Source: an uncultured Candidatus Saccharibacteria bacterium (GTDB taxonomy: Bacteria > Patescibacteriota > Minisyncoccia > UBA6257 > 2-01-FULL-56-20). Taken from it: 64,000 bases of DNA. The notes beneath the pieces were generated by a model. That model was not told the DNA's origin. It searched no databases and saw nothing but the letters and a program-made list of their open reading frames with translations. Position 1 is the stretch's first letter, and each line of letters opens with the position of its first letter. Where the stretch lies: positions 50,458 to 114,457 of the forward strand of contig CAZDFQ010000001.1 of the NCBI GenBank assembly GCA_964505005.1, written 5' to 3'. This document shows positions 49,020-55,133 of the stretch, in pieces. Position numbers and translations under genes: made by a program.

Positions 49020-49260
49020 ATCAAACTGCCTCCTTCCCGGCTCTTAGCCGAGAGTATTGTCCTGGGTTTAATTGCCCTTTATGAAAAGCTGCAACTTCCC
49101 AGAAAGGATAATCAAAATTTTATCTTTAAATTTATAAAATCGGGATTTATATGCAAAGAGAGGTTGCGAAGCAACCGGCTGAAAACCCCGTGTTGGAAGA
49201 TAGGAGCGAAGCGACGTAAGAAACCCGAGGGTGTCTTAAGCGGGGGTCGGGGTTTTCAGG

Positions 49261-49549
49261 TGCCGCGGGGGTGAATCGAACACCCGACGCCATGCTCTTC
49301 CATAAGGACTATATCATCATCCGGTTTTCAAACGGATGCGAGGCGCTTCCTCCGACGTAACGTCGGCGTACTCCCAAAGGGATAGTCTCTACACCTGCCC
49401 CGGCTAATGTCGGGGATTGGCTCGGGATTGTCCGCCCCATCCGTAGATGCCGGCGGAGTTCCCCCGAATTCACCTCGTTTTCATCTAAGCATTACTGCTT
49501 AGCGGCCCGAAGATTCCAGGCATGCGCTCTACCACTGAGCTACCGCGGC
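49261..49549 (-). tRNA. tRNA (probably Phe, anticodon GAA after splicing) interrupted by a ~217-nt group I intron in the anticodon loop
   Basis: 5' exon GCCGCGGTAGCTCAGTGGTAGAGCGCATGCCT (49549-49518), 3' exon GAAGAGCATGGCGTCGGGTGTTCGATTCACCCCCGCGGCA (49300-49261); intron (49517-49301) ends in G, preceding exon ends in U, and contains GGTGTAGAGACTA and CCGAGCCAA, near-identical to the Azoarcus tRNA-Ile group I (IC3) intron core; exon junction and anticodon are inferred. Confidence 0.65.
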
Positions 49550-49736
49550 AGTACTCGTTAATGATAACAAATTAGATTGAGCTTTCAAATAGAAACCCTT
49601 AAAGCGTTCCGCAACAGATCTGTTGGTAGCAGGACGGCGGTCATTTATTAAGGTCATAGATAACTCCGTAGTGTTATGCTACAGCATAACACCCGCCAAT
49701 ACTCTCTTTTTGCTTTCTACCACGATGAATTCATAT

Positions 49737-50867
49737 TCACTTCTTCAGCTTCAAAATCATCCTTCTTTCTGCCGGCTTGATGGAATCAATGACAAATTGA
49801 TAAGTTCCGCCCGCAGTCAGCGCTTTTTTCATTTCCTCGCCGCCTCCGAACTCGGAGATATGAATCAATCCCTGCAGGCCTTTTTCGGTGTCAATGACCG
49901 CGCCGAAAGGATTGAGTTTATAGACCTTGCCGGAAATTTCCTGCCCCGGCTGATAATATTCTCCCGCTTTCTCCCACGGGTCTGGTTTCAAGGCTTTCAG
50001 CGAAAGGAAAACCCGGCTGTCGCGGATATCAATAATCTTCACCTTCACCGGTTCATCCAGTTTGACTACCTCTTTGGGATTTTCAATCAGGCGGTAATCA
50101 ATTTCCGAGATATGGACCAGGCCTTCGATTTGAGGATTGTCGACGAAACGGACGAAAACCCCGAAATCAGCTATTCCGGAAACCACGCCGTCCACCACCT
50201 GCCCGACTTGATAATTGGCGAGCAGTTCCTTGATGTTGGCCGCTACTATTTCCCGCTCGGAGATTATGAGTTTATTGGCCCGGGGATTAACGGTAATCAC
50301 TTTGACATTGAATTCTTCTCCGATAAACTTTCTGAGCGCTTCGAGATTCTTCTGCTGGTCGCCTTCGGTGTTTTTCGGATAATGCTCCTGGGAAAGCTGA
50401 GAGGCCGGCAGAAAGGCCTTCAATCCAAAAAGGTCGGCAACCAAGCCGCCGGAATTGGCGCCGGTTATTTTCACCTTGATGATTTCGCCGCTTTCCTGAA
50501 GTTCCTGGAGCTGCTGCCAGATGCGCTGTTTGCCGGTTTCCGACAATGAAAGTTCGACATAACCGCCTTCGCCTTCAAGGTTTTCTATTCTCGCCATCAC
50601 TTTATCGCCGGGATTAAGTTTTTTGATTATATCTCTGGCGTTAAGCAGCTCGGCACCGTAAACAATACCGGTGCCGAACCGGCCCAGGTCAAAGAAAATC
50701 TGGCGCTGCTCTTTTCGCAGAAGCTCGACTTCAACCACTTCGCCCTCGCGGAGCCGGGCTCCGGAAAACTCATTTTTAAGGGCTTGAAGAAGTGCTGAAT
50801 TCGATTTGTTGTTTTTCTCGTTGACTGGCATGCGAAATATCATAGAAATTCGTTCGTAAAAAATCAA
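49737..50867 (-). CDS. rpsA: 30S ribosomal protein S1 (four S1 domains)
   Basis: 376 aa (likely start at internal MPVNEKNN, ~50831); repeated S1-domain pattern G.V.G.V..I..FG.FV. Confidence 0.8.
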   Translation of the reverse strand: MIFYERISMIFRMPVNEKNNKSNSALLQALKNEFSGARLREGEVVEVELLRKEQRQIFFDLGRFGTGIVYGAELLNARDIIKKLNPGDKVMARIENLEGEGGYVELSLSETGKQRIWQQLQELQESGEIIKVKITGANSGGLVADLFGLKAFLPASQLSQEHYPKNTEGDQQKNLEALRKFIGEEFNVKVITVNPRANKLIISEREIVAANIKELLANYQVGQVVDGVVSGIADFGVFVRFVDNPQIEGLVHISEIDYRLIENPKEVVKLDEPVKVKIIDIRDSRVFLSLKALKPDPWEKAGEYYQPGQEISGKVYKLNPFGAVIDTEKGLQGLIHISEFGGGEEMKKALTAGGTYQFVIDSIKPAERRMILKLKK

Positions 50868-52103: not shown

Positions 52104-52462
52104 GAAGGAGGTGAAGGGAGAAGCTGTTTGACAAGGGCGACCGTTTCGGTTGGGCGATGTAGCTGTCAGGGCGGGGTGACCGTTGGGGTTGGGCGAGCTG
52201 TACGGATGGGGTGACCATTCTCCGGGGGCGAGCTGTTTCATCTGGGTGGCCGTAATTGAGGGGCGCAGTAACCAACTCGCTAAGGAGGTGATGAGAGCTG
52301 TGTTTATGGGGTGACCGTTTATCCGGGGCGAGCTGTATGAGGTGGGTGGCCGTCTTGTGAGGGCGAGCTGTTCTTTAAGGGTGACCGTGGCCCATGGGTG
52401 AGCTGTTGTAGCAGGGTGACCGTAGAAAATGGGCGTAGTAACTACGCCGAAGGAGGAATGAA
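52104..52462. repeat. array of alternating short direct repeats R1 GGGCGAGCTGT and R2 GGGTGACCGT, each followed by a variable 7-mer (35-bp period, ~8 units), upstream of the IS110-like ORF
   Basis: e.g. gggcgagctgt-acggatg-gggtgaccat-tctccgg-gggcgagctgt-ttcatct-gggtggccgt-aattgag...; units 1, 5 and the last are split by SD-containing inserts (AAGGAGGTGA...). Confidence 0.75.
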
Positions 52463-53248
52463 ATGGAGACGAGGAAGACGGGGCTGAACGAGTTGGAAGA
52501 GCGGATCGTCGTGGCTGCGTACAAGCTGGTGGAAGCCCAGCGGCAGCGCGGCCGCATCGGCCGGATAATCGGCAGAATCAAGCCGACAGCTGGCCGAAAC
52601 GGTTGGAAGCCCAAGCCGCCTGGGCCACTCCGGCATCTCCGCGTCCAGGCCTTCGCCGAAGTCGGCTTCAGCGAACCCGAATACGAGGCCTGGGAGCCGA
52701 AGATCGAGGAGTACCGACAGGAGCTCCAGGCGCTCGTGCGTGAGCATCCGGTTTGGACCACTTGGGCTGTCAAGGTGCCGGGTCTTGGGAAGACGATGAC
52801 CGGCCTGGTAATGGCCGCCATCGGCGATGTGACGCGGGTGCACACCGCGTCCGGGCTCTGGAAGTCGTTTGGCCTCCATGTGGACAACGAGACCAAAATG
52901 GCGGTCAAGCCCCAACCCGGCGTACCCGGTACGCTTGGCCATCCGTTCGCCAGGAAAATCCTGGGCGTGATGCGGTCAACCTACTTCCGCATCGGCGCCA
53001 AGGGCCAGGGCGGTTTCTATTACGACCGCTACCTGGAGAAGCGCCGGGAGTACGACCAAGCGCATCCGGACTGGCCCGAAGGCCGGCGCCTGGGCGCGGC
53101 AATCCGCAAGTTCGAGAAACTTCTCCTCTCCCACATCTGGGAGGTGTGGAGAAGGTCCAAGGGCCTACCGGTGTTGCCGCCTTATGCCGTGGCCCAACCC
53201 TGGAGCCTGCACAAAAAAATCAGGCCCGAGGAAGCGATGGCGCAGTAA
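52463..53248 (+). CDS. IS110-family transposase C-terminal (Transposase_20-like, HhH/IGD) domain protein lacking the DEDD RuvC-like N-domain; Arg-rich N-terminus
   Basis: 261 aa; VKVPGLGKTMTGLVMAAIGDVTRVHTASGLWKSFGLHVDNETKMAVKPQPG fits IS110 C-domain (IPGIG..TA..L.AEIGD..RF.S...L..Y.GL.P....SG); N-term RQRGRIGRIIGRIKPTAGRNGWKPKPP; strong [18 protein letters not shown]; ~62% GC. Confidence 0.5.
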   Translation: METRKTGLNELEERIVVAAYKLVEAQRQRGRIGRIIGRIKPTAGRNGWKPKPPGPLRHLRVQAFAEVGFSEPEYEAWEPKIEEYRQELQALVREHPVWTTWAVKVPGLGKTMTGLVMAAIGDVTRVHTASGLWKSFGLHVDNETKMAVKPQPGVPGTLGHPFARKILGVMRSTYFRIGAKGQGGFYYDRYLEKRREYDQAHPDWPEGRRLGAAIRKFEKLLLSHIWEVWRRSKGLPVLPPYAVAQPWSLHKKIRPEEAMAQ

Positions 53249-53452
53249 GCCCGAAGGGTAAACTGTATGAATTGGGTGCCCGTACGTCTGGGGCGAGCTG
53301 TTTGCATTGGGTGACCGTTTTTGCGGGGCGAGCCGTACTACGCGGAGTGACCGTGGCCCGAGGGCGAGCTGTTTGACAAGGGCGACCGTGGTTGTTGGGC
53401 GAGCTGTGGGGGCTGGGTGACCGTTTCGAGAGGGCGCTGTTCAACAAAAGGA
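53249..53452. repeat. downstream array of the same R1/R2 + 7-mer units (~7 units)
   Basis: ggggcgagctgt-ttgcatt-gggtgaccgt-ttttgcg-gggcgagccgt-actacgc-ggagtgaccgt-ggcccga-gggcgagctgt-ttgacaa-gggcgaccgt-...; 7-mer ttgacaa also present in upstream array. Confidence 0.75.
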
Positions 53453-53687: not shown

Positions 53688-55133
53688 ATGAAAAATCGAA
53701 TTCGTATTTTCGACACCTTATCGGCTAAAAAGAAAATTTTGAAGCCATCGAGGGGCAGCGCCATCCGGCTTTTTGTGTGCGGGCCGACGGTCTATGACTA
53801 CAGCCATCTTGGCCACGCCCGAACTTATGTTTTTTTTGATTTTCTAGTCAAATACCTCAGGAATCGCGGCTTGAAAGTTTTTTATCTTCAGAACATCACC
53901 AATGTTGACGACAGAATCATCAAGCGCGCCAGAGAAAACGGCAAGGACCCTCTCAAGCTGGCTGATTTTTTCACCAAAGAGTATTTCCGCGATATGAAAT
54001 CGCTCGGCATCAATTCTGTTGATGTTTATGCGCCGGCTACCAGATTCATCCCCCCAATCGTGAGACAGGTCAAAACCCTTCTTAAAAAAGGTTATGCCTA
54101 CAAAATAGAAAACGACGGTTATTATTTTGACATTTCGCGCTTTCCCGAATACGGGAAATTATCCAAGCGGACGGCCGGTCAGGCCGAAGACGCGGTCTCG
54201 AGAATTGACGAAAGCGTCCGCAAAAGGAATAAAGGCGATTTTTGTTTGTGGAAGCTTGGGCAAAAACAGACGATAACTTCGAAATCGTTTGCCGTCATTA
54301 ACGGCGAACCGCTTTGGGAAACTTCCCTCGGCTGGGGCCGGCCGGGCTGGCATATTGAAGACACGGCGATTTCCGAACATTATTTCGGGCCACAATACGA
54401 CCTTCACGGCGGCGGCCTGGATTTGAAATTCCCCCATCATGAAGCCGAGATTGCCCAGCAGGAAGCCGCCTCGGGCAAAAAACCATTTGTCGAAATCTGG
54501 CTGCACACCGGTATGCTCTACATCGAAGGCAAAAAAATGAGCAAAAGTTTGGGAAACTTTATCACCATCAGGTCGGCGCTGAAAAAATATCCATCATCGG
54601 CGCTTCGTTTTCTCTTTTTGAGTCATCATTATCGTTCGCCGCTTGATTTCAAAAAAACTCAAATCGAGAAGGTGGAAAATACCCTGAAAGATGTTCGATT
54701 GTTCATCGGTAAACTCGATTTTATCATTAAGAAACAAAAAATTTCTCGCCGACCCAAATTGAAAATAAAAAATTATTCTCAAGCTTTTTTTGAAGCGCTG
54801 GATGACGATATAAATACTCCAAAGGCATTGGCTGTTTTATTCAAGCTTTTCTCCGAAGCCAACAAAATAGTTTTTCAGCTGAACAAGGCAGCGGCGCGGC
54901 GAATCAAAGAATTTGTCAAAAAAAGCTTCTCTCTTTTCGGCGTAAACTTCTCCTTGCCGAAAATTCCTTTAAAAATAAAGCGTCTGGCGGCTGAACGGGA
55001 GGAATTCCGAAGAAACAAACAGTTTATCCAGTCCGATGCCTTGCGGAAAAAAATCGCTTCATTAGGATATGTAATTGAAGATACACCAATAGGTCCCTTT
55101 CTGTGGCCTAAAATCCGAAGCACGAAATTCTAA
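53688..55133 (+). CDS. cysS: cysteine--tRNA ligase
   Basis: 481 aa; CGPTVYDYSHLGHAR (HIGH) and KMSKSLGN motifs. Confidence 0.9.
   Translation: MKNRIRIFDTLSAKKKILKPSRGSAIRLFVCGPTVYDYSHLGHARTYVFFDFLVKYLRNRGLKVFYLQNITNVDDRIIKRARENGKDPLKLADFFTKEYFRDMKSLGINSVDVYAPATRFIPPIVRQVKTLLKKGYAYKIENDGYYFDISRFPEYGKLSKRTAGQAEDAVSRIDESVRKRNKGDFCLWKLGQKQTITSKSFAVINGEPLWETSLGWGRPGWHIEDTAISEHYFGPQYDLHGGGLDLKFPHHEAEIAQQEAASGKKPFVEIWLHTGMLYIEGKKMSKSLGNFITIRSALKKYPSSALRFLFLSHHYRSPLDFKKTQIEKVENTLKDVRLFIGKLDFIIKKQKISRRPKLKIKNYSQAFFEALDDDINTPKALAVLFKLFSEANKIVFQLNKAAARRIKEFVKKSFSLFGVNFSLPKIPLKIKRLAAEREEFRRNKQFIQSDALRKKIASLGYVIEDTPIGPFLWPKIRSTKF

Follow-up and report, generated by a model that had tools for sequence, protein, structure and literature searches.

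A tRNA-Phe(GAA) gene with a probable ORF-less group I intron of class Phe.2Ug, most probably from a member of the Patescibacteria

The 64-kb stretch of DNA analyzed here (the window) contains a split gene that we assign, with a probability of about 0.9, to tRNA-Phe(GAA), probably from a member of the Patescibacteria (CPR), carrying an ORF-less 217-nt group I intron of class Phe.2Ug between U33 and G34. Exon 1 reads GCCGCGG-TA-GCTC-AGTGGTA-GAGC-G-CATGC-CT from 49549 onward. Exon 2, down to 49261, reads GAAGA-GCATG-GCGTC-GGGTG-TTCGATT-CACCC-CCGCGGC-A, where G34–A38 are followed by the 3′ strand of the anticodon stem, the variable loop, the T arm, the 3′ strand of the acceptor, and A73. The elements from which the initial annotation had rebuilt a standard tRNA, namely, the acceptor (GCCGCGG/CCGCGGC), the T arm (GGGTG-TTCGATT-CACCC), and the anticodon stem (CATGC/GCATG), were all found. 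The split gene received no call from ARAGORN in its default mode, which reported only tRNA-Lys and tRNA-Val in the window, or from the Rfam tRNA model. Once the intron search was enabled, ARAGORN returned tRNA-Phe(gaa) i(33,217), with the intron at 33, and on the spliced sequence it recovered a tRNA-Phe cloverleaf whose anticodon is GAA and whose discriminator base is A73. The gene does not encode CCA; CCT lies directly 3′ of it. Position 37 of the tRNA carries G, which is also the base in 20 of 38 relatives, the others having A.

The product of splicing in silico is identical at 72 of 72 positions to an uninterrupted gene on the metagenome contig Ga0194125_10001437 (L185 13440-13511). That gene scores 69.5 bits against the Rfam tRNA model and is called tRNA-Phe(gaa) by ARAGORN. 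The uninterrupted twin belongs to a tRNA cluster, Arg(TCT)-Phe(GAA)-His(GTG) (L185 13360-13653, minus strand), a setting unlike the S1-tRNA-Phe order of the window.

Table 1. Features of the split tRNA-Phe locus and its surroundings (positions in the window unless a locus is named)
Feature	Position	Strand	Sequence or content	Basis
tRNA-Phe(GAA) gene, split	49549-49261	(-)		ARAGORN with intron search
Exon 1, tRNA positions 1-33	49518..49549	(-)	acceptor 5′ strand, D arm, anticodon stem 5′ strand, C32 U33	
Exon 2, tRNA positions 34-73	49261..49300	(-)	G34 A35 A36 G37 A38 to A73	
Group I intron, 217 nt	49301..49517	(-)	GGAAUC...CCUUAUG	Rfam RF00028, covariation, MFE fold
Internal guide	49505..49513	(-)	5′-UCUUC|GGGC-3′	pairs with both exon ends
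P2 hairpin	49486..49501	(-)	UAAGCA-GUAA-UGCUUA, GNRA loop	covariation
Catalytic core P3-P8	49306..49477	(-)		alignment and covariation
P3	49477-49472 / 49344-49339	(-)	CGAGGU/GCCUCG	
P4	49467-49462 / 49427-49422	(-)	UCGGGG/UCCCGA	
P5	49457-49452 / 49436-49431	(-)	UCCGCC/GGCGGA, UACG-capped extension	
P6	49421-49419 / 49395-49393	(-)	GCC/GGU	
P6a	49415-49411 / 49402-49398	(-)	CCCCG/CGGGG	
P7	49389 + 49387-49383 / 49311-49306	(-)	G-(A)-GACUA/UAGUCC	
P8	49338-49333 / 49323-49318	(-)	CAUCCG/CGGAUG	
Two-hairpin insert between P7 and P3′, 31 nt	49352..49382	(-)		layout recurs in relatives
omega-G, final intron base	49301..49301	(-)	G	guide pairing, tail comparison
Promoter-like site	49561..49588	(-)	TTGAAA, 16 nt, TG-n-TATCAT	consensus match only
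Trailer hairpin, 81 nt	49179..49259	(-)	12-bp stem, 57 nt enclosed	exact inverted repeat
Terminator-like hairpin	49162..49176	(-)	GGTTGC-TTC-GCAACC then TCTCTTTGCA	consensus scan
Four-domain S1 protein gene, preceding tRNA-Phe	49737-50867			
Cys-rich ORF, 120 aa	48599-48961	(-)	CxxC pairs	DZR_2, E = 0.009
Cys-rich ORF, 58 aa	48843-49019	(-)	CxxC pairs	Zn_ribbon_Nudix, E = 0.02
TIGR-Tas-like ORF, 261 aa	52463-53248	(+)		NCBIfam NF052498, E = 1.4e-21, 77 bits (curated cut-off 100)
Direct arrays flanking the TIGR-Tas-like ORF	52122-52436 and 53261-53437		~35-nt unit	
Downstream element, L202	11085-11199	(+)		
Downstream element, L194	2060-2203	(-)		
Downstream element, L222	2254-2359	(-)		

The intervening sequence is exactly 217 nt long, as counted in the initial annotation. 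The Rfam Intron_gpI model (RF00028), which was built from non-bacterial seeds (Williams, bioRxiv 2020), matches 49527-49295 on the minus strand over its full length (1-253) with 63.6 bits (E = 8e-14). This is 13.6 bits above the gathering score of 50, and it is the sole Intron_gpI match in the 64 kb. The helices were assigned from the Rfam alignment, the published alignment of Williams, and the sequence itself. P1 is formed by GCCU|GGA and UUCGGGC, with a U33.G wobble at the 5′ splice site. The insert between P7 and P3′ consists of UCCC-UUU-GGGA (P7.1-like), GUA, and CCGACG-UUA-CGUCGG (P7.2-like). P9 is absent: only UUAUG follows P7, its G being the omega-G, so that 4 nt separate P7 from the omega-G, and this 5-nt tail is the shortest among 38, tied with that of L118. 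A minimum free energy (MFE) fold recovers P2–P6a, P7.1, P7.2, and P8 on its own and leaves out the P3/P7 pseudoknot. The model score, the U.G of P1, the omega-G with P10, and the P3–P8 core with its pseudoknot together identify a group I intron. Its sole internal ORF (54 aa, overlapping the core) has no Pfam match, and no homing endonuclease was found encoded in the 217 nt, so that it does not qualify as a homing intron.

The proposed structure was compared with a MAFFT alignment of 37 tRNA-Phe introns, that of the window and 36 homologues. Paired cells amount to 87.5% in the proposed structure versus 29%–47% after the 3′ partners are slid by one to three columns. Double-sided changes occur at 36 of 59 pairs, and the observed covariation score was matched by none of 500 shuffles. 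Compensatory changes are seen in P2, P3, P6a, and P8 and in the exon-derived portion of P1, and they affect all six pairs of P2, where 97.7% of cells are paired; P4, P6, and P7 are invariant across the 37 introns. In total, 65 alignment columns are invariant across the 37 sequences, that of the window among them. For P7.2, only 33% of cells are paired in the full alignment. MAFFT fails to align this helix because most relatives carry another insert at that place. Taken apart, the “type B” subset shows the two-hairpin layout in nine more unique relatives, with stems that differ and yet compensate mutually.

The 5′ splice site is marked by U.G in all 37 aligned genes, with covariation at the two exon pairs above it. 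At the 3′ junction, the GG leaves two candidate omega-G positions by sequence alone. The guide, however, pairs with both exon ends: UCUUC with the start of exon 2 (GAAGA) at five of five pairs, forming P10, and GGGC with the end of exon 1 (GCCU). Opposite tRNA position 37, the guide has C in 20/20 genes with G37 and U in 18/18 genes with A37. The P10 register and the covariation at position 37 (38/38 genes) thus place the 3′ splice site after G 49301 and the junction at U33|G34. The splicing pattern given in the initial annotation, U|G...G|G with loop CUGAAGA and anticodon GAA (Phe), is therefore upheld by ARAGORN, by P10 covariation, and by the identical uninterrupted gene; likewise, Rfam, covariation, and that gene agree on a group I intron in the anticodon loop of a tRNA.

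Another junction or a non-Phe identity can be dismissed almost completely. Splicing one base later, which the GG would permit on sequence alone, leaves a 6-nt loop that ARAGORN cannot assign and conflicts with the P10 register and covariation, and it was rejected. Protein-spliced tRNA introns have their canonical site at 37/38, one base 3′ of the anticodon, and a bulge-helix-bulge motif. A bulge-helix-bulge intron was likewise rejected here, since the intervening sequence lies between 33 and 34 and contains a complete group I core. It is also very improbable that the locus is a dead copy, that is, a tRNA-Phe pseudogene whose intron has lost splicing, the genome having another, intact tRNA-Phe outside this locus. 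Such a reading draws on the fact that the view is limited to 64 kb, in which ARAGORN and Rfam find no other tRNA-Phe. However, no decay is seen at the conserved core positions, as the 65 invariant columns over 37 sequences indicate, the exons match a working-type gene exactly, and promoter-like and terminator-like sites flank the gene. Moreover, CPR genomes appear to need such genes: in circularized complete CPR genomes, the tRNA set is full only if intron-bearing tRNAs are counted (PMC8172020).

The missing P9 is the weak point of the splicing reading, and exon ligation may be slow or need help. One possibility, which we regard as unlikely, is that this is a true group I intron that, having lost P9, is inefficient alone and needs a host RNA chaperone or tRNA-binding protein in order to fold or to carry out the second step. 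The stretch of only UUAUG between P7 and the intron end fits such dependence. So does the fact that 18 of 38 relatives also lack P9 and that the tails of many copy a strand of the anticodon stem, which suggests that the tRNA body helps to present the 3′ splice site. On the other hand, the core helices, U.G, omega-G, and P10 are all intact and conserved, no maturase-like gene adjoins the locus, and the P7.1/P7.2 hairpins could replace P9 as a peripheral clamp, a role reported for the P7.1/P7.2 of the Twort intron (PMC1995217). Tails of at most 15 nt without a P9 hairpin are the form taken in those 18 of 38 family members. In the P9-less L001, L018, L023, L027, L060, L068, L073, L079, L093, L096, L097, and L119, the tail of 8–15 nt that precedes the omega-G repeats part of the 5′ strand of the anticodon stem; in L073, for example, AGACGC occurs in both the tail and exon 1. 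The tail in the window, UUAUG, retains only AUG of this copy. Such a tail could pair with exon 2 as a mimic of the anticodon stem and so present the 3′ splice site.

The established group I pathway has two steps and is initiated by guanosine, and the features seen in this intron are precisely the ones it calls for. Under our preferred reading of self-splicing, the gene would be transcribed from the promoter-like site (49588-49561), which stops 12 nt before the 5′ end of the tRNA and may act as a promoter, to the terminator-like hairpin, a putative terminator, giving a transcript from 49588 to 49162. The intron would fold into P1–P8, with the P3/P7 pseudoknot and a clamp of P7.1/P7.2 type. The guide GGGC would then grip GCCU at the end of exon 1, where the U33.G wobble marks the 5′ splice site, and an external guanosine bound in P7 would attack after U33. 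In the second step, the omega-G would occupy the guanosine site while UCUUC holds the GAAGA of exon 2 as P10, and the 3′-OH of U33 would attack after the omega-G, joining the exons with loop CUGAAGA into a normal tRNA-Phe. The intron would thus be catalytic, and its ligated product would presumably serve as the working tRNA-Phe of the cell. No report of transcription or splicing of any Phe.2Ug member was found in the literature.

The initial annotation regarded a tRNA-Phe host as unusual. This did not hold, because class Phe.2Ug was cataloged in 2020 and 37 Phe cases occur among the 120 genome matches listed. Bacterial combinations of tRNA and intron have been extended from four classical ones to 21 (Williams, bioRxiv 2020, doi 10.1101/2020.01.27.920355), and the supplementary seed alignment of that work includes Mba55.Phe.2Ug, of the tRNA-Phe class, which is base for base the locus L060 (Parcubacteria bacterium GW2011_GWD2_38_12). 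The intron described here has the traits of that class: a tRNA-Phe(GAA) host, insertion after the second nucleotide of the anticodon loop, U(-1), and omega-G. It is an ordinary new example of a cataloged and common combination and implies no new mechanism. With the seed it shares the host tRNA, the site after U33, U(-1), the omega-G, P2 with a GNRA loop, the core blocks GGUGAAUUCGGGG, AAUCCCGAGCC, GGUGUAGAGACUA, and AUAGUCC, and extra structure between P7 and P3′. The insert itself differs, being of the minority type B in the window (two hairpins joined by GUA) and a single hairpin with the conserved loop UGAGUCCCAACAAUAAU in the seed, and the 3′ tail is 5 nt long as opposed to 12 nt.

Analogous to the Azoarcus pre-tRNA-Ile(CAU) intron (IC3, “Ile2.5Ug”), this is a small ORF-less intron in the anticodon loop of a bacterial tRNA. 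Sequences identical or nearly so are found in J3/4-P4 (AAUUCGG.GAAAC), P4′/P6 (CCGAGCCAAG), and J6/7-P7 (AGGUGUAGAGACUA). Indeed, GGTGTAGAGACTA and CCGAGCCAA, which the initial annotation had likened to Azoarcus core elements, are present and identical to the Azoarcus intron as printed in Williams’ alignment. The terminal TATGG that it had listed with them is not homologous: in Azoarcus, UAUGG belongs to P8 and the intron ends in ...AACCGG, and the last G of TATGG in the window is the exon base G34. The Azoarcus intron is inserted after position 36 rather than 33, has no hairpins between P7 and P3′, and carries a P9 hairpin with a GAAA loop, the intron of the window being the opposite on both counts. 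Self-splicing and structure of the Azoarcus intron are established experimentally, whereas the present intron is known from sequence. The cyanobacterial and plastid tRNA-Leu(UAA) introns (“Leu.3Ug,” IC3) resemble it in their anticodon-loop site, in a P1 made from the anticodon stem-loop, and in a patchy distribution without an endonuclease gene; they differ in the host tRNA, in the site (34/35), and in a classical IC3 periphery, which has P9 but no P7.1/P7.2. Introns with P7.1/P7.2, for example, the IA introns of phage Twort (orf142-I2) and IStron ribozymes and also the tmRNA T-loop introns in Williams’ alignment, likewise have two hairpins between P7 and P3′. P7.1/P7.2 at that place and an extended P9.0–P9.2 region are IA traits (PMC4227781). 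The present intron has P7.1/P7.2-like hairpins by layout and lacks the P9 domain, and the core sequences of IA introns differ from its own, which are of the tRNA (IC3) type.

The description “IC3-like” was therefore accurate for the core, whose blocks are common to Azoarcus and cyanobacterial tRNA introns, and failed for the periphery. In the four classical types of Williams’ alignment, P7 leads directly to P3′ and P9 follows P7; here there is a two-hairpin insert and no P9. As IC3 fits the core but not the periphery, the intron is best filed under class Phe.2Ug rather than under a subgroup.

The distribution of the intron was surveyed in two scans. A degenerate pattern of three core blocks, run against 185,579 species-representative genomes, gave at least 120 loci; of the 120 listed, a sample rather than a census, 37 are tRNA-Phe(GAA) genes split at the identical site, mostly in Patescibacteria. 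The closest introns among the matches listed are all in tRNA-Phe. The same core pattern (L001–L120) also occurs in tRNA-Asn, Thr, Tyr, Gln, Asp, His, Arg, Leu, and Ser, these non-Phe hosts being mostly in Patescibacteria, Omnitrophota, and Elusimicrobia MAGs. Many of the tRNA-Asn introns are ∼550 nt long and may contain an ORF. Several split tRNA-Phe genes receive a wrong label from ARAGORN, namely, Phe(aaa) for L042, L093, and L119, Val for L088, Ser for L060, and Pro for L105; all six were mapped by hand to Phe.2Ug. As the split gene is missed and several of its relatives are mislabeled by default tRNA finders, genomes of this lineage can seem to be without tRNA-Phe.

The second scan, of metagenomes, used the 3′ exon as query with the anticodon stem left free and gave at least 120 loci: 88 uninterrupted, 30 with an intron at 33/34, and 2 cut by contig ends. 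Among the matches listed, which are a sample and not a census, the intron is thus present in 30 of 118 tRNA-Phe genes that share this 3′ half, or about a quarter of these near-identical genes. The S1 gene precedes tRNA-Phe in 16 listed metagenome loci, 13 without and 3 with the intron, and the order S1-tRNA-Phe with the intron present is also found in L088, a Paceibacterota genome. Presence of the intron behind the same S1 gene therefore varies at orthologous loci, which suggests that it has been gained or lost repeatedly among relatives. The locus adds one more well-supported case of the heavy colonization of Patescibacteria tRNA genes by small ORF-less group I introns.

A broader reading, which we put forward only tentatively, is that the intron belongs to a structural sub-lineage of tRNA group I introns with an IC3-type core, a P7.1/P7.2-like clamp, no P9, and, in relatives, a tail copying the anticodon stem, that the intron is still moving, and that the trailer hairpin downstream of the gene is an integration scar. 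If so, the intron, with 217 nt and 4 nt from P7 to the omega-G, would rank with the most reduced group I ribozymes in nature; its patchiness without an endonuclease of its own would point to movement by reverse splicing or by an endonuclease acting in trans; and the 81-nt trailer, which has short motifs in common with elements beside duplicated tRNA-Phe 3′ ends in relatives, could have been left behind by an element integrating into tRNA-Phe.

The 12-bp-stem hairpin that the initial annotation had placed 3′ of the tRNA is exact, with arms CTGAAAACCCCG (49259-49248) and CGGGGTTTTCAG (49190-49179). Its fold has a z score of -5.2. It has no Rfam match at E ≤ 1, and neither a second copy of the trailer nor a duplicated tRNA 3′ end was found in the 64-kb window. 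In relatives, a plain A-rich/U-rich terminator hairpin usually lies directly 3′ of the tRNA, and the arms of the trailer look like that terminator with a 57-nt insert. An nhmmer search with the trailer against the fetched loci gave a best E of 0.59, which is not significant, and a profile of the relatives’ downstream elements gave E = 0.26 against the window, also not significant.

These downstream elements, 70–145 nt long, follow the tRNA terminator in 10 of 129 non-redundant tRNA-Phe loci (those of Table 1 and L097, L138, L158, L162, L216, L219, and L230). They start with the antisense of the T loop and stem of their own tRNA (GGTGAATCGAAC) and end with a direct copy of its 3′ end (..GATTCACCCCCGCGGCA), a copy that changes along with the tRNA in L097. 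The elements of L158 and L219 have a closing stem and two hairpins that differ in sequence and keep their pairing. No Rfam or ARAGORN match was found for the relatives’ elements, which could be integration scars at tRNA-Phe or a small RNA. The best match of the L216 and L222 profile in the whole window falls inside the trailer, at 49183-49243 on the plus strand, but its E of 0.26 is not significant. Four short motifs of the L216/L222 element recur there, though not in the same sequence: GGGGGTCGGGG, GTGTWGGAAG, a hairpin AAACC(C)GAGGGT, and GGAGCGWAGCGACG. In three other loci, L161, L169, and L193, a fragment of the tRNA 3′ end is simply duplicated 43 nt downstream.

The neighboring genes are bacterial housekeeping genes, encoding GlmS, a CofD/YvcK-like protein, S1, CorA, CysRS, and RNase HII. 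No identical copy of the CofD-like protein was found by an exact look-up. The exons are identical to those of the Patescibacteria MAGs L001 and L038, and most of the metagenome relatives listed are from groundwater. Together with the synteny of L088 and the TIGR-Tas-like locus described below, these observations indicate that the host most probably belongs to the Patescibacteria (CPR). The tandem zinc-ribbon genes of the initial annotation could be confirmed only in part: two small overlapping Cys-rich ORFs do lie downstream of tRNA-Phe, but their Pfam and NCBIfam matches are all below threshold. No link between these ORFs and the intron is evident.

A GC-rich islet (GC 0.59, 52122-53437), 2.6 kb from tRNA-Phe, resembles a TIGR-Tas locus. 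Its ORF matches the model “TIGR-Tas system RNA-guided endonuclease” below the curated cut-off and also matches IS110 weakly. Each unit of the arrays on both sides of the ORF has two alternating conserved repeats, GGGCGAGCTGT and GGGTGACCGT, with ∼7–8 variable bases between them. Repeat family D2 has eight units upstream and four downstream, and the overlapping D1 adds one downstream copy (53334-53410); Tandem Repeats Finder did not detect the arrays. TIGR-Tas systems, which are typical of CPR, have a dual-repeat array (PMC12045711), and the arrays of the window match this arrangement. The CysRS of the window (53688-55133) is identical to a protein encoded in L241, a 1.7-kb Logan contig from run SRR5161795 and the only match to an exact look-up of this protein. 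The run is a metagenome of a copper-mine tailings dam in Brazil (PMC7327174), which may be a clue to where the source organism lives.
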